IMG/VR virus record: IMGVR_UViG_3300010885_018971
Span: 1 to 64,000 of that record
Reading direction: 5' to 3' (one strand)
Length of the DNA: 64,000 bases
DNA from: a virus
This document shows, in pieces, positions 8,831-34,967 of this stretch. Position 1 is the first letter of the stretch; each line of letters starts with the position of its first letter. The notes under the pieces were generated by a model. It was not told the origin of the DNA and searched no databases. It saw only the letters and a program-made list of their open reading frames with translations. Both the position numbers and the translations under genes were made by a program.

Positions 8831-8889
8831 CCCTCAGAAGTTGAGGGGATCAAATATCGCTTGCCTTTAATTGCAGGGTGGGGTATAAT
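8831..8889 (+). promoter_or_regulatory. Phage early sigma70-type promoter with upstream CCCT-N9-AGGG dyad
   Basis: TTGCCT 8861, 17 bp spacer, TATAAT 8884; motif family repeated many times in window. Confidence 0.85.
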
Positions 8890-10369: not shown

Positions 10370-10492
10370 ATGAAACCTAGAAATCTTGTCGCAAAAGATT
10401 TACGCACTCCAAAGTACCGCATGCGTGTCGTGGAGTCGAAGGTTCAGTACGTTCGTCAACCTAAACATAGGAAACCTAATCATGTTGAATAA
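10370..10492 (+). CDS. Small basic ArfA-like peptide (40 aa)
   Basis: MKPRNLVAKDLRTPKYRMRVVESKVQYVRQPKHRKPNHVE read by hand; pattern N....L..P.(F/Y)R.RV...K..Y.R..KH as in ArfA. Confidence 0.55.
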   Translation: MKPRNLVAKDLRTPKYRMRVVESKVQYVRQPKHRKPNHVE

Positions 10493-10724
10493 AGAGTATG
10501 AGTTCTTTCGTCAGGGGTTACTCAAAACCGTAACGATTAAAGAACATGCGTATGATGTAATCGAATTCTCGATCACTCAGAAAGTAACTAATGAATCTGG
10601 CAAGGTATTGATTGATAGTGGCCACACATCATTCTTCACTCCAGATGAATTCAAACAGTTTTTCGCACCAATTGTAAATGATATGAAGGAGTATATTGAA
10701 AATGACCTCAACCAAACTGAATGA
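10482..10724 (+). CDS. Hypothetical protein
   Basis: ATG overlapping previous ORF. Confidence 0.65.
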   Translation: MLNKEYEFFRQGLLKTVTIKEHAYDVIEFSITQKVTNESGKVLIDSGHTSFFTPDEFKQFFAPIVNDMKEYIENDLNQTE

Positions 10725-13933: not shown

Positions 13934-14006
13934 AGTTGAGGGTTGCCCAGCCTTGGTGGAGAAGGGTCATAAATCGCTTTACTTTAATTCATAAATAGTG
14001 TATAAT
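13928..14006 (+). promoter_or_regulatory. Early promoter with tandem dyad-like elements
   Basis: TTTACT 13978, 17 bp, TATAAT 14001; two AGGG half-sites upstream. Confidence 0.8.
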
Positions 14007-14036
14007 TATACTATGGAAACAAGAAAAGGAAAGAAA

Positions 14037-14372
14037 ATGAAGAAACTTATTGCAAGTATTATCATTGCTGGATCCGCTGTTGCAATCCCTGCACAAGCCC
14101 AACATTATGGTCATGGTGGTTACCATCGATCAGGTGGTGGTAATGGATGGGTTGCGCCATTGATTGGTGGAGTTATCATTGGTGGTGTTTTAAGCCAGCC
14201 AAGATATGTTTACCCAGCCCCACCTCCAGTGTATGTTTACCCACAACCACAGGTAGTTTACGGAGCACCAACCACAATGCCTGTAATTCCAGCACCTGGA
14301 CAAGTATGTGAATTGAGATCAGAAATGATCAATGGTCAAGTAGTAACAGGAAACTTCTGCTACTCAAGATAA
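14037..14372 (+). CDS. Secreted Gly/Pro-rich protein
   Basis: Signal peptide ending AQA, YVYP repeats. Confidence 0.7.
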   Translation: MKKLIASIIIAGSAVAIPAQAQHYGHGGYHRSGGGNGWVAPLIGGVIIGGVLSQPRYVYPAPPPVYVYPQPQVVYGAPTTMPVIPAPGQVCELRSEMINGQVVTGNFCYSR

Positions 14373-14402
14373 TGTTTTTGTAATGGTTAAAGGAAGATCC
14401 TG

Positions 14403-15164
14403 ATGTTTTGGTTTAAGAGAAAAGATATTGTTATTGATTGTTTCATAGCCGATGAATTGATATACAATAATTTTAAACTGGATAAAGCGAATAAATTTAT
14501 TCCACAAGAATGGAAAAATCTTCCGCCCCATCATGAGTTTAAATCAAACTCAGATCCAGAATCAACTTTAACTGTTGAGATAGGCACTCTAAAGAAATGT
14601 AAAGGGTTTATTGATTTATTCTCAAGAGGATTTATTCTACCATACTGGGCAGATACGCAAGTACAGGCTTTTACGGATAGGTATGTTTTCGCAGGGCAGT
14701 ATAAATCAGAACCAAATTCTAATTTTAGTGGACATGCTCCAGCACAATATGGTGAAATTTACACAGACTGTGCACAGATTAAATTGGAATGCCCATGGTT
14801 TCTGCAAGAGAAGACTGGAGTTAAATTTGCTTGGAATGAATGCACTTGGCATAATACTCATCGCGCAGGGATTTTTCACATACCTTCTGCTGTTATAGAT
14901 TTTAAATATCAATTTTTGGTTAATGTAAATATCTTTGTTAAGAAAGACACAAGTTTAAAATTAAATGCTGGTGATCCCTTGGTGCATATTCTACCGCTAT
15001 CAGAAAATAATGTTGTACTAAAACATCATTTGGTGAGTCAAACTGAGTATGATAGATTTCAAAATAACTACATTGAATCTATCGGATATAAAAATGCAAG
15101 AGAAATCAGAAAAGATTTAAAATTTAACACTAAAGGTAAATGTCCTTTTGGATTTGGAAAATGA
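14403..15164 (+). CDS. Hypothetical beta-rich protein ending GKCPFGFGK
   Basis: T.K.C.GF.D....GF, G.PLVH.LP; family not securely recognised. Confidence 0.7.
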   Translation: MFWFKRKDIVIDCFIADELIYNNFKLDKANKFIPQEWKNLPPHHEFKSNSDPESTLTVEIGTLKKCKGFIDLFSRGFILPYWADTQVQAFTDRYVFAGQYKSEPNSNFSGHAPAQYGEIYTDCAQIKLECPWFLQEKTGVKFAWNECTWHNTHRAGIFHIPSAVIDFKYQFLVNVNIFVKKDTSLKLNAGDPLVHILPLSENNVVLKHHLVSQTEYDRFQNNYIESIGYKNAREIRKDLKFNTKGKCPFGFGK

Positions 15165-15616
15165 AACAAGAATGGATTGATGCATTCATGGACACTGCGG
15201 AGAGATTCGCAGATTTGTCTAGTGCAATTCGTTTGAAGGTAGGTGCAGTAGTTGTAAAAGACAATCGCATCATCTCAATTGGATATAATGGAACACCTGC
15301 TGGATGGGATAACTGTTGTGAAGAAGTGGTTGATGTTAGTCCCAATGATCCAAGATATGACTACAATCATTTCACTAAAGAATTGAAAACAAAAGATGAG
15401 GTTATTCATGCTGAAGCAAATGCTATTCTCAAACTTGCACGTGATGGTGAATCAGGCAATGGTGCCAGTTTATTCTGTACTCATGCTCCTTGTTTGCATT
15501 GCGCTAAGTTGATCTATGGTGCAGGTATCTCGAGTGTTTACTATCGTAATGCATATCGTAACAATGATGGAATTGATTTTTTAAATAAGTGTAATATTAA
15601 TGTTCTCGCAGGATAA
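15161..15616 (+). CDS. cd: dCMP deaminase
   Basis: KVGAV, GYNG, HAEANA, PCLHC zinc motifs. Confidence 0.93.
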   Translation: MKQEWIDAFMDTAERFADLSSAIRLKVGAVVVKDNRIISIGYNGTPAGWDNCCEEVVDVSPNDPRYDYNHFTKELKTKDEVIHAEANAILKLARDGESGNGASLFCTHAPCLHCAKLIYGAGISSVYYRNAYRNNDGIDFLNKCNINVLAG

Positions 15617-16157
15617 AATTATTTCATACCAGTTAGATAGTAATGAATTTACTGATGTTCAACGGGAACTTGATGCCTTCTATGAACTTGATATTCCATA
15701 TGGAAACCCGCACGATAAAAGTGCATTGGAAAGAGGACTGAACATCCATATTCCAAAGCTACATATTAGTTATGTGTCATTCGGGGAGAACGTAATAGAT
15801 ATGCATAACTTAAAATACTTGAAAAAAATTATTTTAAAATATGCACCAACAGATAATTGCTACATTGGTCAGAGTTGGGCAACTGACATGAAGGTTGGAA
15901 CAATGGCAGCATTGCACAATCATGTTTTTTTGGAGAATGATTTGTTTTTATGTGGGGTTTACTACCATGATGTAGATCCATCTGATACGCAAATACACTT
16001 TGCATCAGATGAGATGCAAACACAATTTGTAGCATTCGAAATGAAACCTGGAAAACTAATGTTTTGGCCAACTGAGTACGTGCATGGTATACCATTGAAA
16101 TCAAATCCCACAAAAAGAAGATCAGTTTCTTTCAATTTATACAAAAATGAAGACTGA
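15600..16157 (+). CDS. Putative 2OG-Fe(II) oxygenase
   Basis: SW, HNH, GVYY, PG.L.FWP...H, RRSVSFN. Confidence 0.75.
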   Translation: MFSQDKIISYQLDSNEFTDVQRELDAFYELDIPYGNPHDKSALERGLNIHIPKLHISYVSFGENVIDMHNLKYLKKIILKYAPTDNCYIGQSWATDMKVGTMAALHNHVFLENDLFLCGVYYHDVDPSDTQIHFASDEMQTQFVAFEMKPGKLMFWPTEYVHGIPLKSNPTKRRSVSFNLYKNED

Positions 16158-16176
16158 CGTGTCCTAAATAGAATTA

Positions 16177-16237
16177 CCCTACTGCAAAAAGGGTAATTAA
16201 AATTTAACTTTACTTTTATTCAAAAAGGCTGTATAAT
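16177..16237 (+). promoter_or_regulatory. Promoter of tRNA operon 1 (dyad, -35 TTTACT, -10 TATAAT)
   Basis: CCCT-N9-AGGG 16177-16193; TTTACT 16209; 17 bp; TATAAT 16232. Confidence 0.88.
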
Positions 16238-16244
16238 TTCTACT

Positions 16245-16358
16245 ATGAAATCGATATCCTGTTTAGCGTCAAGAAAACACCTACCACTCAATAGTGGCTG
16301 GTCGTATGCACGCCCACAGTTTGAGATTACAATGGATCTTGGGGGTTTTGGAAAGTAA
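16245..16358 (+). CDS. Leaderless attenuator leader peptide, 37 aa (MKSISCLASRKHLPLNSGWSYARPQFEITMDLGGFGK)
   Basis: ATG 7 nt after -10 box, no SD; 32 distinct codons; stop lies inside antiterminator 5' arm. Confidence 0.75.
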   Translation: MKSISCLASRKHLPLNSGWSYARPQFEITMDLGGFGK

Positions 16359-16391
16359 AGTGTAACAGATAGTTTACTTCCCAAAGCCCTC
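16341..16391 (+). promoter_or_regulatory. Antiterminator hairpin
   Basis: GGGGGTTTTGGAAAGTAAA (16341-16359) pairs with TTTACTTCCCAAAGCCCTC (16373-16391): 18 of 19 positions incl. 2 G-U. Confidence 0.8.
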
Positions 16392-16422
16392 TGAGATGAA
16401 AGTCCAGAGGGTTTTTTGTTTT
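16383..16422 (+). terminator. Intrinsic terminator, mutually exclusive with the antiterminator
   Basis: CCCTCTG-a-GAT-GAAA-GTC-CAGAGGG followed by TTTTTTGTTTT. Confidence 0.88.
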
Positions 16423-16439
16423 AGGGCATCGTCCCAAAT

Positions 16440-16455
16440 TGTTCTTTAAAAATTT
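16440..16455 (+). promoter_or_regulatory. rrn-type boxA antitermination site
   Basis: TGTTCTTTAAAAATTT vs rrn boxA TGCTCTTTAACAATTT; identical copy at 17755. Confidence 0.75.
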
Positions 16456-16469
16456 GCGTACCAAATTGT

Positions 16470-16545
16470 AGGGGATTCGCCAAGTCGGTAAGGCACTGGA
16501 TTTTGATTCCAGCATGCGGTGGTTCGAGCCCATCATCCCCTGCCA
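16470..16545 (+). tRNA. tRNA-Gln(TTG)
   Basis: Cloverleaf, CTGGA-TTTTGAT-TCCAG, CCA. Confidence 0.93.
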
Positions 16546-16549
16546 AATT

Positions 16550-16625
16550 GCGTCCTTAGCTCAGCTGGTAGAGCAGTAGACTTTTAATCTATTGGTCGTG
16601 GGTTCGAATCCCGCAGGACGCACCA
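16550..16625 (+). tRNA. tRNA-Lys(TTT)
   Basis: Cloverleaf, CTTTTAA loop, CCA. Confidence 0.95.
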
Positions 16626-16658
16626 TATAAAAATGTATTACACAGTATGTTTTTATAT

Positions 16659-16734
16659 GGTGATTGTAGCTCAATGGTAGAGTCCAGGATTGTGATTCCT
16701 GTTGTTGTGAGTTCGAATCTCATCAGTCACCCCA
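16659..16734 (+). tRNA. tRNA-His(GTG)
   Basis: Encoded G-1 and C73, TTGTGAT loop, CCA. Confidence 0.93.
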
Positions 16735-16736
16735 AT

Positions 16737-16812
16737 GCCAAGGTAGCTCATCAGGTAGAGCACCAGACTGAAAATCTGGGTGTGGTTGGTTCGAGTCCAA
16801 CTCTTGGTACCA
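16737..16812 (+). tRNA. tRNA-Phe(GAA)
   Basis: CTGAAAA loop, CCA. Confidence 0.93.
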
Positions 16813-16817
16813 GTTAT

Positions 16818-16892
16818 AGCCAATTAGCTCAGTGGTAGAGCAATCGCTTGATAAGCGATAGGTCAGTGGATCGTAACCACTATTGGCTACCA
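16818..16892 (+). tRNA. tRNA-Ile(GAT)
   Basis: TTGATAA loop; atypical T-loop ATCGTAA; CCA. Confidence 0.9.
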
Positions 16893-16898
16893 AGTTAT

Positions 16899-16990
16899 GG
16901 AAAGTAATGCAGGTGCGTTGGTGCGCCGACCAGCCTTGAAAACTGGGTTCTCAGAAATGGGATGGGGTTCGACTCCTCTGCTTTCCGCCA
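16899..16990 (+). tRNA. tRNA-Ser(TGA)
   Basis: CTTGAAA loop, long variable arm, G73, CCA. Confidence 0.88.
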
Positions 16991-16995
16991 GTTAT

Positions 16996-17070
16996 ACCCT
17001 CTTAGTAAAATGAATATTACACATCGCTACGAACGATGAAGTGGTGGTTTGATTCCATCAGAGGGTACCA
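16996..17070 (+). tRNA. tRNA-Arg(ACG)
   Basis: CATCG-CTACGAA-CGATG; atypical D and T loops; CCA. Confidence 0.85.
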
Positions 17071-17075
17071 AGTTA

Positions 17076-17165
17076 GGAAGATGGGCAGGACGGTAATGCA
17101 GCAGATTGCTAATCTGTAGGGTGTAGTAATACGCTCACAGGGTTCGATTCCCTGATCTTCCACCA
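17076..17165 (+). tRNA. tRNA-Ser(GCT)
   Basis: TTGCTAA loop, long variable arm, CCA. Confidence 0.9.
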
Positions 17166-17171
17166 GAGTTT

Positions 17172-17256
17172 GCGAGTATGGTGAAATAGGTAGACACAAG
17201 AGACTTAAAATCTCTCGACGCAAGTCGTGCTGGTTCGATTCCTGCTACTCGCACCA
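17172..17256 (+). tRNA. tRNA-Leu(TAA)
   Basis: CTTAAAA loop, variable arm, CCA. Confidence 0.93.
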
Positions 17257-17257
17257 T

Positions 17258-17334
17258 GTCACTTTAGCTCAGTAGGATAGAGCAACAACCTTCTAAGTTG
17301 TGGGTCAGTGGTTCGAATCCACTAAGTGACGCCA
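17258..17334 (+). tRNA. tRNA-Arg(TCT)
   Basis: CTTCTAA loop, CCA. Confidence 0.93.
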
Positions 17335-17340
17335 GATATT

Positions 17341-17415
17341 GGGCTGATAGCTTAATGGTAAAGCAGTCGACTCATAATCGATTGAGTCTAGGTTCAATTC
17401 CTAGTCAGCCCACCA
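17341..17415 (+). tRNA. tRNA(CAT), probably Ile2 (lysidine-modified, reads ATA)
   Basis: GTCGA-CTCATAA-TCGAT resembles bacterial Ile2; separate fMet and Met genes are present. Confidence 0.8.
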
Positions 17416-17420
17416 GATAT

Positions 17421-17495
17421 GCACGTGTGACTGAATGGTAAGGTAGCGGTTTGCAAGTCCGATGTTCACAGGTTCGATTCCTGTCACGTGCTCCA
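17421..17495 (+). tRNA. tRNA-Cys(GCA)
   Basis: GCA anticodon, U73, weak anticodon stem, CCA. Confidence 0.82.
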
Positions 17496-17497
17496 GA

Positions 17498-17644
17498 TTA
17501 TTTTTTATTGTAAAGTTCGAAAAGAGTTTTTACTTTTTCTTCTAACACAGAAAGACGATTGTCAGCTTTTGCAAGTACAATCACCAATGTGATGAATCCA
17601 AGAAAGACTGGCCACAACTTCATGATGTTATCGATTAGATCCAT
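17498..17644 (-). CDS. Small single-TM/coiled-coil protein (48 aa), late, antisense within the tRNA array
   Basis: MDLIDNIMKLWPVFLGFITLVIVLAKADNRLSVLEEKVKTLFELYNKK; GGAGGA RBS; TATAAATA upstream. Confidence 0.8.
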   Translation of the reverse strand: MDLIDNIMKLWPVFLGFITLVIVLAKADNRLSVLEEKVKTLFELYNKK

Positions 17645-17662
17645 GGTTCCTCCATTTTGCTC

Positions 17663-17670
17663 TATTTATA
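17663..17670 (-). promoter_or_regulatory. T4-type late promoter TATAAATA
   Basis: Exact consensus on minus strand 18 nt before ATG. Confidence 0.75.
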
Positions 17671-17673
17671 ATA

Positions 17674-17770
17674 CCACTTTGCAAAAAGGGTCATTAAAAT
17701 ATCGCTTGCCTTTTATTGATAGTTGAGGTATAATAACTGTAAGTTAGTTGAAATTGTTCTTTAAAAATTT
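17674..17770 (+). promoter_or_regulatory. Promoter of tRNA operon 2 plus boxA
   Basis: TTGCCT 17706, 17 bp, TATAAT 17729; boxA 17755-17770; no leader ORF or terminator. Confidence 0.85.
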
Positions 17771-17846
17771 GCTCGGTTCGTCTATCGGCTAGGACACTGC
17801 CCTTTCACGGCAGGAAGGAGGGGTTCGATTCCCCCACCGAGTACCA
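17771..17846 (+). tRNA. tRNA-Glu(TTC)
   Basis: CTTTCAC loop, CCA. Confidence 0.92.
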
Positions 17847-17847
17847 G

Positions 17848-18057
17848 ATTTAATTGCATTGGGTTGCCAACCCCAGTAGGCAATGTGATTGTGAATGTTA
17901 TGCGACGGCATGGCCACGATTGTATTGCACGAAACCTTGAGATCGTATCAGGAGGACGCTGGACAAAGTTGGATCGTAATGTGGTAACAACCAATCGTCA
18001 GACGATGACGTGGTAAACCCTGAGTGGGTGTTGTCTATCATCCCAGTGTAATTAAAT
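17848..18057 (+). ncRNA. Putative structured RNA A (~210 nt)
   Basis: Ends pair over 16 bp (ATTTAATTGCATTGGG / CCCAGTGTAATTAAAT); lies between tRNAs. Confidence 0.55.
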
Positions 18058-18059
18058 GT

Positions 18060-18184
18060 GGTATTAGTTTTGCTGATGTAAGCCATGGGTAATCGTAACA
18101 CCTGAGTAACTCTGTCAATAAACGGTAGTGTGGCCACCAATTCCGTTGAGGCTTAGCAAATAGTGCGTCAGCAAAACTAATATC
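18060..18184 (+). ncRNA. Putative structured RNA B (~125 nt)
   Basis: About 20 bp closing stem GTATTAGTTTTGCTGATGTA / TGCGTCAGCAAAACTAATAT. Confidence 0.55.
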
Positions 18185-18186
18185 AT

Positions 18187-18271
18187 GGAGACACGGCAAA
18201 GTTGGAGAGTTGCGGCAGACTGTAAATCTGTTCTTTCGGGTGAGTAAGTTCGAATCTTACTGTCTCCACCA
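18187..18271 (+). tRNA. tRNA-Tyr(GTA)
   Basis: CTGTAAA loop, variable arm, CCA. Confidence 0.9.
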
Positions 18272-18341
18272 AAACAAATGATCGTAACAGATCCAATGTT
18301 TGTTAGTTTCAATGGGTGTTATAGAAACTATCTGGAATTTA

Positions 18342-18416
18342 GGTCTCAAAGTGTTCATGGACGCACACAACACTGTCACTGTTGAAGAAGGGGATCGTTA
18401 CCCCTTGAGACCGCCA
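18342..18416 (+). tRNA. tRNA-Asp(GTC)
   Basis: CTGTCAC loop, G73; atypical T-loop ATCGTTA. Confidence 0.87.
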
Positions 18417-18421
18417 GTTAT

Positions 18422-18496
18422 CGCAGAGTAGAGAAGTAGTATCTCATCAGGTTCATACCCTGAAGGTCGGTGGTGCGATTCCATCCTCTGCAACCA
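18422..18496 (+). tRNA. Initiator tRNA-fMet(CAT)
   Basis: C1-A72 mismatch; TCAGG-TTCATAC-CCTGA. Confidence 0.85.
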
Positions 18497-18754
18497 AAAC
18501 ACGTGGCTTTGTTCGCCACTACTGTGACCCGCAGGATAGAAGTGCCGTGACTGGCAAGGGTGGTTCTGAAAGAAAACGTAGCCATGCGAGTGGAGCGAAG
18601 TCCTTTCACTGATGTAAAAGTCAGCAGTCTTACCGAACTGGCGTTGGCAATACGATAGTCCTATGTGTGGCAAGTTGGTGGAAGGTACGTGTGATGGGTG
18701 CGATAGCGTCGTATCTTGATGTGCTATAATTACAACGACATATAGGAAGCACCT
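18497..18754 (+). ncRNA. Putative structured RNA C (~255 nt)
   Basis: GC-richer spacer with helices GGCTTTGTTC/GAGCGAAGTC, CTGAT/GTCAG, CCTATGTGT/ACATATAGG. Confidence 0.45.
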
Positions 18755-18837
18755 GCCCCGATGGTGGAATTGGTAGACACGCTGGTCTTAGAAGCCAGTA
18801 CTTCGGTGTGCGAGTTCGAGTCTCGCTTGGGGCACCA
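18755..18837 (+). tRNA. tRNA-Leu(TAG)
   Basis: CTTAGAA loop, variable arm, CCA. Confidence 0.93.
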
Positions 18838-18845
18838 AGAATTTT

Positions 18846-18920
18846 GCCTTGTTAGCTCAGTGGTAGAGCGTCTCGTTTACACCGAGAGGGTCGGCAGTTC
18901 GAAACTGTCACAAGGTACCA
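18846..18920 (+). tRNA. tRNA-Val(TAC)
   Basis: TTTACAC loop, CCA. Confidence 0.93.
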
Positions 18921-18922
18921 AT

Positions 18923-18997
18923 GGTGATGTAGCACAGTGGTAGTGCAATTGCTTCATACGCAATTGGTCGTTGGTTCAAATCCAACCATCACCACCA
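18923..18997 (+). tRNA. tRNA-Met(CAT), elongator
   Basis: ATTGC-TTCATAC-GCAAT, paired 1-72, CCA. Confidence 0.85.
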
Positions 18998-19013
18998 TTA
19001 TAAGTAGAATTAT

Positions 19014-19090
<77 letters not shown>

Positions 19091-19095
19091 AGTTT

Positions 19096-19170
19096 GCCGA
19101 ATTAGCACAGTGGTAGTGCAATCGCCTTGTAAGCGATAGGTCGTCAGTTCGAATCCGACATTCGGCACCA
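19096..19170 (+). tRNA. tRNA-Thr(TGT)
   Basis: CTTGTAA loop, CCA. Confidence 0.93.
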
Positions 19171-19176
19171 AGTTAT

Positions 19177-19251
19177 TCCAGAGTAGCACAGCGGTAGTGC
19201 AGTTGACTGTTAATCAATTGGTCGTAGGTTCGATCCCTGCCTCTGGAGCCA
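19177..19251 (+). tRNA. tRNA-Asn(GTT)
   Basis: CTGTTAA loop, CCA. Confidence 0.94.
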
Positions 19252-19256
19252 ATATT

Positions 19257-19330
19257 GGGGGATTAGTATAATGGGATTACGGCAGCTTTGCAAGCTGTTT
19301 ATGAGAGTTCGATTCTCTCATCCTCCACCA
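19257..19330 (+). tRNA. tRNA-Ala(TGC)
   Basis: G3-U70, TTTGCAA loop, CCA. Confidence 0.92.
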
Positions 19331-19364
19331 GTTTTTGTTAGATAAGTAAATAAAGGAAAATAGT

Positions 19365-19550
19365 ATGACTAATCATGAAACATTAAAGGCGCAGTTCGAA
19401 GTGTATTTGGCAGAGAACGAGAAATTTACAACCAAAGGTGTGAAGGCATCTGCGGCACGTGCACGTAAAGCATTGCAGGAAATTAGCAAAGCAATTCGTG
19501 AGCGTCGCAAAGAAATCACAGCTGAGAAAGAGGCATTGGCAGCAAAATGA
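19365..19550 (+). CDS. Histone H1-like (Hc1-type) small basic protein
   Basis: KF..KGVKASAARARKAL.E..K.....RKEI. Confidence 0.75.
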   Translation: MTNHETLKAQFEVYLAENEKFTTKGVKASAARARKALQEISKAIRERRKEITAEKEALAAK

Positions 19551-19756
19551 ACGGTAAAGGTAGCAAGGCAAGACCATTCAGTGTAACTCAACAAGAATAT
19601 GAATCTCGTTGGGATGCAATCTTTGGACGGGACATAAAAGAAGATAACACAGGCACTAGTAAGAATGAGTTTCAGGATGTATTGTCAACAGAAGATTGTA
19701 TGACAATGGAAATGCCAGGAACAATTGGTGGTGCTAAAATTGTTTTTAAAGAGTAA
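19547..19756 (+). CDS. Hypothetical protein (GKGSK.RP...WD.IFG)
   Basis: Coupled ORF. Confidence 0.65.
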   Translation: MNGKGSKARPFSVTQQEYESRWDAIFGRDIKEDNTGTSKNEFQDVLSTEDCMTMEMPGTIGGAKIVFKE

Positions 19757-19759
19757 AGT

Positions 19760-19833
19760 ATCTCGCTGGTGTAATGGCAGCACGTGGGTCTCCAAAACCC
19801 TTGGTCGGAGTTCGAGTCTCTGGCGGGATGCCA
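19760..19833 (+). tRNA. tRNA-Trp(CCA)
   Basis: CTCCAAA loop, G73, CCA. Confidence 0.9.
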
Positions 19834-19836
19834 ATT

Positions 19837-19910
19837 GCGGGTATGATGTAAAGGTAACCTGAATCCTTGCCAAGGATTACATCCGAGTTCGATTCTCGGT
19901 ACCCGCTCCA
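19837..19910 (+). tRNA. tRNA-Gly(GCC)
   Basis: TTGCCAA loop, U73, CCA. Confidence 0.9.
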
Positions 19911-19918
19911 GGAATTTT

Positions 19919-20599
19919 ATGAAATCACTAATTATAATTTTATTTCTATTGGCGATTGGTGTGCATGCTAAACCAGTTGAGTCATATGTTTTATATGATG
20001 CTGATAATCATTCTGTGGTTACTGGTACAAACATACACGAGATAAAACCTGTGGCCAGTTTAACAAAGATAATGACCGCAATGGTCGCTATTGATAGTGG
20101 CAACTACAACAGAGAATTACTTGAACGATTACTCATTCGTTCAGACAATACAGCAGCAGATCTGCTCGCAACACAATATCCAAACGGCAAACTAAATTTT
20201 ATTCGTGCAATGAATAATAAAGCACTGCAACTTGGATTACAAGAAACCAGTTTCCATGACCCAAGTGGGCTAAGCATATTCAATCGAAGCACTGCCAGAG
20301 AATACGTTGAGGTTGTGATTGCGGCAAATACGTATCCACTCATTAGAGAGATATCATCCACTCCCGAAAAGAAAATCAGTAGTAATAAAAAGTTTCAGAT
20401 ATTACATAATACGAATACATTATTAAAAGAGTATGACGAAATTGTATTAAGTAAAACTGGATTCACCAGCCATGCTGGTAGATGTTTAGCACTCTCAGTA
20501 GAGAATCAAAGTAAGAAACATATCATTGTTATACTTGGTGAACCAACTCCACAAAAGAGAAGCGAGATCGCTAGAAATTTAATTAAAATGACACAGTAA
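19919..20599 (+). CDS. Serine D-Ala-D-Ala peptidase (peptidase S11, PBP7/PbpG-like)
   Basis: Signal peptide; ASLTK (SxxK), SDN, KTGFT. Confidence 0.9.
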   Translation: MKSLIIILFLLAIGVHAKPVESYVLYDADNHSVVTGTNIHEIKPVASLTKIMTAMVAIDSGNYNRELLERLLIRSDNTAADLLATQYPNGKLNFIRAMNNKALQLGLQETSFHDPSGLSIFNRSTAREYVEVVIAANTYPLIREISSTPEKKISSNKKFQILHNTNTLLKEYDEIVLSKTGFTSHAGRCLALSVENQSKKHIIVILGEPTPQKRSEIARNLIKMTQ

Positions 20600-20610
20600 G
20601 GGGTATTATC

Positions 20611-21093
20611 ATGCGTAGAATCGACATCGATGAAGTAAAAGCATTCATCGAAGCGCAAAGTCCAACTACTAAAATTTACATTGGTGGTGACTCTGAACGA
20701 TTAATCATAGGAAACGAATGGTACGCAGATTATACTTTGGCAGTTGTTGTTCACATCAATGGTAACAGTGGCTGTAAAATTTTTGGTGAGTCAGTTAGAG
20801 AAAGAGATTACGATCAGAAGAAGAGCAGACCACGTATGCGTCTAATGAATGAGGTATACAAGATTGCAGAATTGTATTTGAAGTTACAAGATGTTTTGGA
20901 AGATAGAGAAGTAGAAGTGCACTTGGATATCAACCCAAACGAAATGTATGGTTCTTCATGCGTGATCAATGAAGCAGTGGGCTATATAAAAGGTATGTGT
21001 AATGTGGTACCATTTGTTAAACCAAATGCTTTTGCGGCATCATATTGCGCAGACAGAATGAAAGATATTCTTTCACATAAGATAGCAGCTTAA
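20611..21093 (+). CDS. YkuK-type RNase H-like protein
   Basis: IYIGGDS, RL..EV, EVHLDIN, FAAS..AD. Confidence 0.8.
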   Translation: MRRIDIDEVKAFIEAQSPTTKIYIGGDSERLIIGNEWYADYTLAVVVHINGNSGCKIFGESVRERDYDQKKSRPRMRLMNEVYKIAELYLKLQDVLEDREVEVHLDINPNEMYGSSCVINEAVGYIKGMCNVVPFVKPNAFAASYCADRMKDILSHKIAA

Positions 21094-21094
21094 T

Positions 21095-21168
21095 GCGGGA
21101 TTCGTAAAATGGTATTACCTTAGCCTTCCAAGCTAAAGTCGGGAGTTCGATTCTCCCATCCCGCTCCA
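21095..21168 (+). tRNA. tRNA-Gly(TCC)
   Basis: CTTCCAA loop, U73, CCA. Confidence 0.93.
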
Positions 21169-21181
21169 ACCAAGGATTATT

Positions 21182-21394
21182 ATGACAGATGAAGTTGAAC
21201 AACTAAAGCCCATGACCTTCTCAGAGAAGTGGCATGCGGAGAAGCTACTAAAGAAATCCAAAAAGAAAGCCAAGAAAGCACTGATTGAGAAAGGCTATGA
21301 TCCAACATCAGCCTCATCAATGGTCAAGAAGGCACTCAAGAAAATTGTCAACGACAATAGACCTGTGAAGAAAGCAGCTGGACGTGGCGGATAA
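21182..21394 (+). CDS. Lys-rich hypothetical protein
   Basis: AAGGA RBS. Confidence 0.65.
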   Translation: MTDEVEQLKPMTFSEKWHAEKLLKKSKKKAKKALIEKGYDPTSASSMVKKALKKIVNDNRPVKKAAGRGG

Positions 21395-21827
21395 AAGATA
21401 TTTCCTTTTGACGACTGAGTGGAAGCATGGGTTCAAGCATCATAATGCAATTGCTGATCATGGCTTGAAGTCAATGGTTAATTTCAGTCGATCAATAGAC
21501 TATATAAAAGATGTCACGTATAAAGAAATTAGTCCCGAGAAGTACGAACAACTGATGTATGGAGATGACGATGGACGAGATAACCAAAGAGAAACACAGC
21601 AAGAGAATCCACCAAAAAGAAGTCGTGCAAAAGCGAAAAGCAAAGATAGCAAAAGCATACGGAATCCCAGTGGAAAATCCACACGAACTACTGGATCACA
21701 GCCCAGTAAGTTGCTCAAGTCCACTGTGCGTAATGTGTCGAAATCCAAGAAAGACATTCAAAGAACTGACGATACAGGAGCAAAGAAATTATCAAAACCT
21801 AGACGAACCAAGGGATCGTCACAGTAA
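21384..21827 (+). CDS. Hypothetical protein; basic C-terminal half overlaps next gene
   Basis: GTG start overlapping previous stop; globular-looking N-terminal 60 aa. Confidence 0.5.
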   Translation: MADKRYFLLTTEWKHGFKHHNAIADHGLKSMVNFSRSIDYIKDVTYKEISPEKYEQLMYGDDDGRDNQRETQQENPPKRSRAKAKSKDSKSIRNPSGKSTRTTGSQPSKLLKSTVRNVSKSKKDIQRTDDTGAKKLSKPRRTKGSSQ

Positions 21828-21846
21828 TGGATTACCAGTAGAATGA
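21571..21846 (+). CDS. Small Cys-cluster protein (C-x4-C-x2-C)
   Basis: GGAGA RBS; H...SCSSPLCVMCRNPRK. Confidence 0.65.
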   Translation: MDEITKEKHSKRIHQKEVVQKRKAKIAKAYGIPVENPHELLDHSPVSCSSPLCVMCRNPRKTFKELTIQEQRNYQNLDEPRDRHSNGLPVE

Positions 21847-22103
21847 TACCACTATTTGTCAGCGTAGATAAGGCGAAGGAAAGATCTGCCATATGTAAGA
21901 CCTGCGATCAGTTCAAAGCAGGATTTTGTATGGAGTGTGGTTGTTTATTAAAGTTCAAGGTGCTGTTTGCAGCAGGTGATTGTCCAGTTGGTAAGTGGAA
22001 CATGGAACGAGCAACAGACATAATGGTACATACAATCGCGGATGATCTTTCCACAATCGAAGAGAGCACCACATCATGGGATAACTGGAAAGCAATAGAA
22101 TGA
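21843..22103 (+). CDS. Cys-rich metal-binding protein
   Basis: CKTC, CMECGC, CPVGKW. Confidence 0.7.
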   Translation: MIPLFVSVDKAKERSAICKTCDQFKAGFCMECGCLLKFKVLFAAGDCPVGKWNMERATDIMVHTIADDLSTIEESTTSWDNWKAIE

Positions 22104-30204: not shown

Positions 30205-30711
30205 ATGATTATTACACTATTTTTAGATATGGATGGCGTGCTTTGCAACTTTGACAAAGCATACAGTAAACTCACAGAGATTCGTGAGAAAGATCATAAG
30301 CAATTTCGTAATGCCGTAATGAACTATAAGATTTTTGAAGATCTTGAGTTCATGCCTGATGCGCAAGAATTGCTGAATCACGTCTCCAAACTAAATGGTG
30401 TTCAAGTTGAAATTCTAACATCCATGGGTACTTTTGAAACTGATATGGGTAATCAAGCAAAACAACAAAAGATGCGTTGGTTGGATTCTAAAAACATTCC
30501 ATACAAAGCAAACTTTGTTCGTTCAAAACAAGAGAAGGCTATGTACGCTAATCCGTATACAATATTGATTGATGACTCAACTGGTTGCGTTAAGCCATTT
30601 GAAGTTGCTGGTGGTCATGCAATCCTTCATACAAGTTCCAAACAATCCATTAAAGATTTAAACTCAATTATTCCTCAGATCGGTGCTTTGTCTGCCGTGA
30701 GGTTTATATGA
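30205..30711 (+). CDS. HAD-family 5'(3')-deoxyribonucleotidase-like
   Basis: LDMDGVL, ILTS, ILIDD. Confidence 0.85.
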   Translation: MIITLFLDMDGVLCNFDKAYSKLTEIREKDHKQFRNAVMNYKIFEDLEFMPDAQELLNHVSKLNGVQVEILTSMGTFETDMGNQAKQQKMRWLDSKNIPYKANFVRSKQEKAMYANPYTILIDDSTGCVKPFEVAGGHAILHTSSKQSIKDLNSIIPQIGALSAVRFI

Positions 30712-34417: not shown

Positions 34418-34585
34418 ATGTTATGTGATAAAGTTGAGATTGGACCCAGTATTATTATTCTAGACAAAGAGGTGACGTTAAGTTCGTTGCCTGGATGGGT
34501 AGAAGGTGATATGTTCAAATTGATTATTGGTGCAAATGGAAATGTTACATTTATCAAGGTTACCCAACCTGGAGGTGTAATGTAG
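34418..34585 (+). CDS. Small AbrB-like protein (55 aa)
   Basis: Read by hand; GW.EGD.F; TTGCTT-17-TATAAT at 34388-34416. Confidence 0.45.
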   Translation: MLCDKVEIGPSIIILDKEVTLSSLPGWVEGDMFKLIIGANGNVTFIKVTQPGGVM

Positions 34586-34848
34586 TATTGCTGTATGAAA
34601 TGATGTAAAAGGTGTTCTGGACGGGAGTTCGATTCTCCCCACCTCCACCAAAATTCATTATTGTGTAGTAGTGAGTTTTGGTGGGGGTGACTAGGTTTCG
34701 ACAGGGCAATAAGTAACTGAGTGGACAGCACGAGACAGATACTCGTAAAAAGTAAATAAAGTAAACGCAAACGACTCACAGTTCGCATTGGCAGCCTAAA
34801 CGCTGACTAGGGTTTCGGTAGGTTTCCTCGTAACAGAATAACCTACCA
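34586..34848 (+). ncRNA. ssrA: Circularly permuted (two-piece) tmRNA, tag ANDSQFALAA
   Basis: T-arm plus CACCTCC-A-CCA (ends 34650) precedes GGGGGTGA..TTCGAC (34683); G3-U70; hairpin spacer; tag frame 34767-34799. Confidence 0.9.
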
Positions 34849-34967
34849 CTGTTAGTTAGTCTATGCTTGATGCCAGCAACCGATACCTTAGTATCTCGTA
34901 CTGAACACATTGCGACGAATCTGACAAGTTGATAGTATTTTTTAAAACTTTTTCTAAGGAAATTCAA

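Follow-up and report, generated by a model that had tools for sequence, protein, structure and literature searches.

A putative ribosome-dependent transcription attenuator at the head of a tRNA operon in uncultured T4-like phages

The stretch of DNA analysed here (the window) is the first 64 kb of a 90.8-kb virus contig from IMG/VR (IMGVR_UViG_3300010885_018971), estimated to be 57% complete. Between an early promoter and the first tRNA operon of this contig lies a module that combines a short leaderless open reading frame (ORF), a hairpin that we call A (the antiterminator) and an intrinsic terminator, T. On balance, we favour reading this module as a ribosome-dependent transcription attenuator heading the tRNA operon, one that would allow read-through by default and terminate transcription once its leader has been translated to the end. 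A preliminary description of the window had placed a promoter, a leaderless 37-codon ORF, the two hairpins, a boxA and 12 tRNAs at this locus, and inspection of the sequence, folding and a promoter scan located every one of them (Table 1). Three features came to light beyond that description, namely a conserved peptide core, (K/R)HLPL(L/N)SGW...R, a hairpin within the ORF (H1) and, in some relatives, an extra sigma70-type promoter between T and the tRNAs.

Table 1. The leader module and its surroundings in the window.
Feature	Position	Strand	Sequence, structure and basis
Stem-loop	16174-16196	+	TTACCCT...AGGGTAA; from sequence; just 5' of the promoter, the two together a PeSL-type cassette (promoter-early stem-loop)
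Sigma70-type early promoter	16209-16237	+	TTTACT-17-TATAAT; 10/12 consensus matches; -35 at 16209-16214, -10 at 16232-16237
Leaderless 37-codon leader ORF	16245-16358	+	MKSISCLASRKHLPLNSGWSYARPQFEITMDLGGFGK, then stop (16356-16358); from sequence
Hairpin H1	16280-16301	+	CCACU-CAAU-AGUGG plus two outer pairs; inside the ORF, codons 12-19; RNAalifold consensus
Hairpin A (antiterminator)	16341-16391	+	11+7+3 bp, about -25.5 kcal/mol; from folding; 5' arm is the last five codons plus the stop
Intrinsic terminator T	16383-16422	+	A-tract, stem CCCTCTG/CAGAGGG, bulged A, GAU-GAAA-GUC top, then TTTTTTGTTTT
BoxB-like hairpin	16424-16435	+	GGG-CAUCGU-CCC; from sequence; between T and boxA
BoxA-like word	16437-16457	+	AATTGTTCTTTAAAAATTTGC (core TGTTCTTTAAAAA); identical 21-nt copy at 17752-17772; in most relatives
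tRNA operon 1	16470-17492	+	Gln, Lys, His, Phe, Ile, Ser(UGA)-like, Arg, Ser, Leu, Arg, Met, Cys; ten by ARAGORN, two more by Rfam
Comparison cassette	17676-17772	+	Stem-loop, promoter TTGCCT-17-TATAAT, boxA word; before tRNA-Glu; without the ~180-nt ORF/A/T module

Relatives of the module were gathered from IMG/VR by exact-word scans with the boxA word and the T stem and by the peptide pattern HLPL[LN][SC]GW, which together yielded ~90 loci. Deduplication left 57 distinct sequences, made up of 55 modules that were scored and two divergent variants (L091 and L099). The recurrence of the architecture in the 55 scored relatives and in both variants, with compensatory changes, indicates that it exceeds chance.

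The switch at the centre of the module is formed by A and T, for which all folding energies are nearest-neighbour predictions. The 5' strand of A reads GGG GGT TTT GGA AAG TAA, and the end of its 3' arm, CCCTC (16387-91), is also the base of T; in the relatives this common segment reads CCC(U/C)(C). The stem of T (16387-16411) consists of 7 bp, a bulged A, 3 bp and a GAAA loop, and TTTTTTGTTTT at 16412-22 supplies the U6GU4 tract. A simple terminator scan of the window did not return T, because the bulged upper stem exceeds the loop limit of that scan. When folded, the segment 16320-16425 gave a z of -4.6 against its shuffles. Across the 55 modules, A alone was predicted at -19 to -28 kcal/mol and T alone at -11 to -14 kcal/mol. 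Comparing the two states in the RNA that exists when the polymerase sits on the U-tract (that is, with the U-tract excluded), the A state was favoured in 55/55, by 0.8-5.2 kcal/mol (mean 1.95), and the RNAalifold consensus also selects A, which is transcribed before T. The distance from the start of A's 5' arm to the stop codon is 15-21 nt in every module, and when the footprint of a ribosome at the stop was masked, T formed in 55/55, a result that concerns geometry only and not kinetics.

The helices are also preserved through sequence change. In T, three stem pairs have changed on both sides among the relatives (U-A to G-C, G-C to A-U and A-U to C-G), and in T and H1 combined 98% of cells are paired, compared with 31-52% in slid controls. 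The lower stem of A shows a U-A to G-C exchange in seven sequences as well as alternation between G·U and A-U, and at least five distinct versions of its upper stem occur, each self-complementary. In L076 both arms of A have been replaced together, GGGUUUUGG/CCAAAACCC giving way to GGGUGGGAU/AUCCUACCC, with the peptide tail becoming ...GWDG. Swapping arms between modules reduced the predicted stability from -22.4 kcal/mol for cognate to -19.7 kcal/mol for chimeric pairs, at a mean cost of 2.7 kcal/mol and with a doubled spread of energies. The variant L091 keeps the bases of the A arm, yet its reading frame there is shifted by one base (...QGVLVSR, then stop), with the stop still inside the arm, which argues that the arm is kept as RNA and not as peptide. 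This divergent module (L091:2920-3200) retains the HLPLNSGW core, A and T, and its ORF may start further upstream (56 codons).

Judged from sequence and predicted folding, then, A and T are mutually exclusive, the structures covary and the position of the stop is fixed. We infer that T terminates transcription and that the position of the ribosome decides whether A or T forms. These results agree with the preliminary description, which had proposed that antiterminator and terminator exclude each other through overlapping arms, that the stop lies in the antiterminator's 5' arm, that masking this arm turns the fold from A to T, and that related phages would carry the short ORF, the stop in the arm and the alternative helices, with compensatory changes, in front of their tRNAs. 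Its remark that no strong protector hairpin lies upstream held as well: pairing of the upstream ORF with the 5' arm of A was no better than in shuffled controls (1/55 at p<=0.05), so that no protector helix is seen. A candidate protector, TATCCAAACC/GGTTTGGATA, which would form a trp-style 1:2 helix in some lineages, was not significant against shuffled upstream sequence and was rejected.

For such a switch to operate, ribosomes would have to travel the leader. An open frame of 37-45 codons runs through all 55 scored modules and both variants, and the remaining two frames are closed in 55/55; all three stop codons are in use among the relatives. The part of the ORF before the core measures 30, 33 or 36 nt and the part after it 39, 42, 45, 48, 51, 54, 57 or 60 nt, all multiples of 3 (an apparent 43-nt class with a 17-nt arm offset is an artefact of pattern anchoring and corresponds to 45 and 15). 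Within the ORF there are at least nine changes in length, and every one is a multiple of 3, whereas the untranslated spacer from the stop to T varies freely (27, 29, 30, 31, 32, 33, 34 or 35 nt). Since the frame is always open, the other frames are closed and indels stay in frame only up to the stop, translation seems to have been selected for. In line with the leaderless ORF claimed by the preliminary description, the leader thus appears to be translated, or at least selected to stay open.

The encoded peptide is conserved in its middle and variable at its ends. Its core, (K/R)HLPL(L/N)SGW...R...D, lies 17-29 residues before the stop; the L, P, L, G, W and R are invariant, the His and Asp nearly so, and an A(I/F)E stretch is conserved. 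The N-terminus varies, and the C-terminus takes forms such as GFGK, GLDKK, GLASR, GWDG and GFGKKM.

Part of this conservation can be traced to H1, the hairpin that overlaps the core. In H1, 99.4% of cells are paired and two pairs have changed on both sides (A-U to G-C and C-G to U-A). Among 33 ORFs tallied, the Pro codons at H1 are only CCA or CCG, although CCG makes up just 5% of Pro codons in the phage's genes, and the Ser position is AGU in 31/33, with one Cys (UGU) and one Asn (AAC) making up the remainder. In L057, a synonymous AGC is paired with CCG. H1 thereby constrains codon choice, an RNA-level constraint that accounts for the Pro, Ser and Gly codons of the core, and we regard it as a candidate pause or synchronising hairpin. 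A second helix within the ORF (CUCACGCA with UGCGAUUGAG) was dropped, having many mismatched lineages and unconvincing covariation.

The transcript that carries the leader would begin at a strong promoter, which ranks among the two best promoter-like sites within 14000-22000 and is found at the same place in the relatives as TTGACA, TTGACT or TTTACT, a spacing of 17 and TATAAT or TAGAAT. The region 16174-16237, comprising the stem-loop and the promoter, aligns with 17676-17734, and the same unit of stem-loop and promoter is present in the relatives, as in the PeSLs described for T4-type phages (PMC2839356, PMC4122927). The leader ATG (16245) stands 7 nt past the -10 element and has no Shine-Dalgarno sequence. 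This spacing is 6-7 nt in 55/55 scored modules, with no purine-rich tract; among the two variants it is 10 nt in L099, and L091 seemingly has a short leader. A leaderless start of the ORF is therefore plausible, with transcription probably starting at or next to the A of the AUG.

Leaderless early mRNAs seem to be habitual in the phage from which the window comes, as an ATG stands 6-7 nt past the -10 element at 8/15 of its plus-strand consensus promoters (promoters starting at 8861, 10335, 13978, 16209, 22497, 30170, 37749 and 38318). For one of the genes concerned, the ORF at 30205-30711, the start is well defined: it encodes an NT5C/HAD nucleotidase, and with the DMDGV motif of this enzyme at residues 8-12, the protein must start at the leaderless-spaced ATG. 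At 8861, 13978 and 22497 an AAAGGAA lies further on, and a later start may be used. The other small leaderless ORF of the window (10371-10493) has 40 codons and encodes a basic peptide (MKPRNLVAKDLRTPKYRMRVV...), and its end overlaps the ATG of the next gene (ATGTTGAATAA). The idea that the switch is a general design of small leaderless ORFs was rejected, as the ORF at 10371 has neither such hairpins nor a terminator switch. Being absent both there and from the second tRNA operon, the architecture appears to be specific to its locus.

Downstream of T, the module leads directly into tRNA genes. The first gene after T is tRNA-Gln(UUG) in 50/51 relatives with enough downstream sequence, and the gap between T and this gene is 49-53 nt in most modules and holds only a small hairpin and the boxA word. 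In the window, the promoter scan found no promoter-like site between T and the first tRNA. Because most modules, that of the window included, have such a promoter-free gap, transcription of their tRNAs must pass T, and the module is, by its position, linked to the tRNA array. The small hairpin resembles boxB. Its loop, CAUCG(U/A), is constant in the relatives (for example in L008, L016 and L056), and its stems change together (GGG/CCC, GGC/GCC, UAGC/GCUA and GGAG/CUCC), which suggests an element bound sequence-specifically by a protein. The second tRNA cassette of the window is plain, so that the module stands out as a discrete addition to a promoter-boxA-tRNA cassette.

About one relative in six departs from this arrangement. 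In these sequences (7/55 scored modules, L091 and L099), an extra stem-loop and a sigma70-type promoter lie between T and boxA, sometimes with a near-identical sister that lacks the extra promoter (L055 compared with L056). Such units fit the mobile PeSL cassettes of T4-type phages (PMC2839356, PMC4122927). The preliminary description had put the tRNAs under the control of the switch; this would stand for most genomes, which have no downstream promoter, but where an extra promoter is present the switch is not the sole route to the tRNAs.

Two genes of operon 1 were missed by ARAGORN. One, at 16897-16986, is an 88-nt class II tRNA-like gene with the anticodon loop CUUGAAA, likely Ser-UGA, which scores 34.9 bits on the Rfam tRNA-Sec model, under the family cut-off. 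The other is a tRNA-Cys(GCA) at 17421-17492, with 54 bits on the Rfam tRNA model.

According to the attenuator reading, events would unfold as follows. The strong early promoter would start the transcript at or next to the A of the AUG, giving a leaderless mRNA. If no ribosome occupied the last ~10 codons while the polymerase transcribed the terminator, A would form first and sequester CCCUC, and the polymerase would continue through the boxB/boxA-like leader into the tRNA genes. If, instead, a ribosome stood on the last codons or at the stop, the 5' arm of A would lie inside it and CCCUC would be free; the fast-folding, GAAA-capped T would then form and the transcript would end at the U-tract. 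Transcription of the tRNAs from the leader promoter would accordingly decrease while leader translation (initiation and elongation) matches the speed of transcription, and increase once that translation falls behind or breaks down, so that the phage's tRNA output is probably tied to ribosome performance.

Which condition this might report is less sharply marked. Depleted, uncharged or cleaved tRNAs are a possible signal, in that any slowing of leader translation should induce, and the sequence singles out none of them. Rare codons make up 8/37 of the leader, compared with 6.8% in the phage's long ORFs (P about 0.003), an excess compatible with a tRNA-pool signal and equally with the GC demands of the helices. 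By our own tally, ~16/37 leader codons are read by the tRNAs of operon 1, which holds 12/26 of the phage's tRNAs. A codon sampler matched to the controlled tRNAs was rejected, there being no enrichment and the phage tRNA set reading essentially all codons. The overall attenuator reading of the preliminary description is thus supported in part: a ribosome at the end of the leader is predicted to bring termination, and an absent or late one read-through, but no sequence feature, be it a codon run or an enrichment, marks the tRNA pool as the signal. As a more speculative extension, to which we attach a low probability, the module could act as a phage homeostat for translation capacity. The core and H1 would synchronise ribosome and polymerase and so report working ribosomes and tRNAs, and transcription of the near-complete tRNA set would increase whenever host translation slows down, suffers starvation or comes under attack from tRNA-cleaving defences; once released, the leader RNA or peptide may also work in trans.

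Other explanations would assign the same elements different roles. The module could be a stand-alone early micro-gene, in which promoter, ORF and terminator yield a trans-acting product, either a peptide of 37-45 residues or a dual-function small RNA, whose target might be translation or tRNA biology; the position of the module before the tRNAs would then be inherited gene order, and A would mainly shape mRNA stability or the context of translation termination. The conserved core with its invariant residues would suit such a gene, as would the 9/57 sequences that keep the module intact despite a tRNA promoter of their own, and there is a parallel in Sinorhizobium meliloti, where an attenuator RNA and its leader peptide both act in trans (PMC6614838, PMC7968998). 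Nevertheless, much of the core's conservation is demanded by H1, as seen in its Pro codons, in its Ser codon (nearly always AGY) and in its compensatory pairs, and the C-terminus varies, and in L091 is in another frame, while the RNA arm is kept. The peptide itself gives little sign of a folded protein: AlphaFold2, supplied with 47 sequences, returned a pLDDT of 59 and no secondary structure; no homologues were found in Pfam, PHROGs or the Protein Data Bank (PDB); and a set of 5.8 billion proteins held one near-identical, unnamed predicted protein. A micro-gene would also leave unexplained why the stop always lies in the arm that competes with the terminator and why promoterless tRNAs follow T in most genomes, and we consider it rather unlikely. 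We find it less likely still that the peptide serves as a nascent-chain sensor, its core pausing or arresting the ribosome at a set codon from within the ribosome tunnel, alone or with a small molecule, and so choosing between A and T. The placement of a conserved core well before the stop, behind a variable N-terminus, is what such a sensor would need, and the geometry would allow A to form if the ribosome were arrested near codons 20-25. Yet there is no conserved C-terminal arrest motif, the residues there varying and being read in another frame in L091; a profile search of PDB chains, nascent ones included, found no related arrest peptide, its best match being a tail fibre (E = 0.6); the core coincides with a covarying RNA hairpin; and the context suggests no ligand.

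Two further explanations were weighed. T could be a fixed, unregulated partial terminator or insulator, with A setting its constant leakiness, and hence the tRNA dose from a very strong promoter, and with the array shielded from upstream transcription; translation of the ORF would then be irrelevant to termination. The near-equal energies of the A and T states in all relatives are what one would expect of a rheostat, and T does lie between a consensus promoter and untranslated genes. A passive rheostat, however, needs no ORF that is selected to stay open and ends inside the 5' arm of A, and we give this explanation little credence. Most improbable of all is that A is an RNase III-type processing site at which the leader is cut off the tRNA precursor. 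As a near-perfect helix of roughly 20 bp with single mismatches, A resembles phage RNase III sites, such as those that process the T7 early transcript, but leader and tRNA are already parted when RNase P cleaves at tRNA-Gln, and processing would explain neither the overlap with T nor the fixed position of the stop.

The attenuator reading has its own difficulties, and the following points weigh against it. No repeated codon or conserved codon run was found among the 47 distinct peptides and there is no protector hairpin, so the module is not a textbook amino-acid attenuator. A and T have no more than 4-5 stem bases and the A-tract in common, and their states differ little in energy; T can begin to fold from its unpaired upper stem and then push aside the base of A, so that read-through in the absence of a ribosome is predicted but not certain. 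The peptide core is more conserved than a passive leader requires, its His, Trp, Arg and Asp, as well as the A(I/F)E stretch, not being explained by H1. The nine sequences with a bypass promoter retain the module intact nonetheless, which fits a function beyond, or other than, tRNA gating. T4-type early promoters may shut off within minutes, as is known for T4, and this would limit a feedback role. Finally, contigs from two RNA libraries fall mostly on the tRNAs, many of them from other organisms, and almost none lie over the leader; these contigs say nothing on starts, 3' ends or levels at the leader.

Among the known systems close to the module are the enterobacterial attenuators trpL, hisL, pheL, thrL, leuL and ilvL, with which it has in common a short leader ORF, mutually exclusive antiterminator and intrinsic terminator hairpins and a stop that lets the finishing ribosome mask the antiterminator strand. 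It differs from them in having no cognate codon run and no protector (1:2) hairpin, in its leaderless mRNA, in targeting tRNAs and not biosynthetic enzymes, and in being encoded by a phage. As there is no protector, a lack of translation should give read-through and not super-attenuation. The closest functional logic is found in the bmrCD, vmlR, lmo0919 and ermK leaders, where a slowed ribosome favours the antiterminator and genes that relieve translation stress are switched on; these encode bacterial resistance proteins and respond to antibiotics, whereas the output here would be a phage tRNA array. TnaC, SpeFL and SecM likewise have a conserved short leader peptide and let the state of translation govern downstream expression. 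They act, however, through Rho access or exposure of a Shine-Dalgarno sequence and have arrest residues near the C-terminus, whereas in the phage module the C-terminus varies and the terminator is intrinsic.

A precedent for a leaderless attenuator transcript is rnTrpL of S. meliloti (PMC6614838): in the trpL/rnTrpL/peTrpL system, too, the attenuator transcript begins at the start codon of the leader (PMC6614838, PMC7968998). That element differs in its Trp codons and its target, trpE(G), and has no sequence similarity to the phage module. Once released, its RNA and peptide can function in their own right (PMC6614838, PMC7968998), and comparable functions in trans would account for the conserved leader of the phages. 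The elements that frame the module match PeSL cassettes (PMC2839356, PMC4122927) on the 5' side (stem-loop and early promoter) and rrn-type boxB/boxA leaders on the 3' side (hairpin and boxA-like word); neither of these contains a translated leader or a competing pair of hairpins, and 17676-17772 represents the plain form. We would place the module within ribosome-mediated attenuation, from which it departs in its leaderless start, its lack of a codon run and protector, its control of tRNAs and its phage location.

To our knowledge, phage tRNA arrays are usually treated as constitutive cargo. If the attenuator reading is true, phages regulate their own tRNA supply by feedback, which would offer a handle on when and why phage tRNAs are needed, whether because of a mismatch in codon usage, host shut-off or defences that target tRNAs. 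Reading through by default and lacking a codon run, such an attenuator would also stand nearer in design to the leaders that sense antibiotics than to those of amino-acid operons. Taken with the other genes whose ATG lies at the start of transcription, the module points to leaderless early mRNAs in this T4-like clade. As the parts are generic (a sigma70 promoter, an intrinsic terminator and a leaderless ORF), the lack of cultured phages does not stand in the way of testing the switch, either in E. coli or in a coupled in vitro system.

Searches beyond the relatives described above set bounds on the module's distribution. Cultured phages gave no DNA or peptide match to the module; tRNA-Gln alone matched, and its surroundings in phiWae14 and S16 held no comparable leader. 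A degenerate pattern of 21 bases, run against one genome for each prokaryote species, gave a single chance match, inside a GC-rich gene. Rfam 15 gave no covariance-model match in 16238-16469 at E<=1 and detected only tRNAs, and a search for relatives with the 185-aa protein encoded upstream recovered none.

The module belongs, on present sequence evidence, to a clade of uncultured freshwater T4-like phages. The window encodes T4-type replication genes, and its RNase H is 75-88% identical to that of the related contigs and shares 39-43% identity with its counterparts in cyanophages, Pelagibacter phage HTVC008M and Methylophilales phage Melnitz. Four complete genomes are found among the relatives, 160-174 kb long and with terminal repeats, and the module is single-copy in each. 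Two contigs of one RNA library (run X10) match 17376-17653 without a difference, a region that covers tRNA-Met and tRNA-Cys as well as a minus-strand 48-codon ORF at 17498-17644; these contigs show neither strand nor level. In all, the window carries 26 tRNAs (24 by ARAGORN and two more by Rfam) and one tmRNA, the latter at 34558-34890, phage-encoded and with the tag peptide ANDSQFALAA. A tmRNA alongside a near-complete tRNA set points to a heavy investment of the phage in translation.

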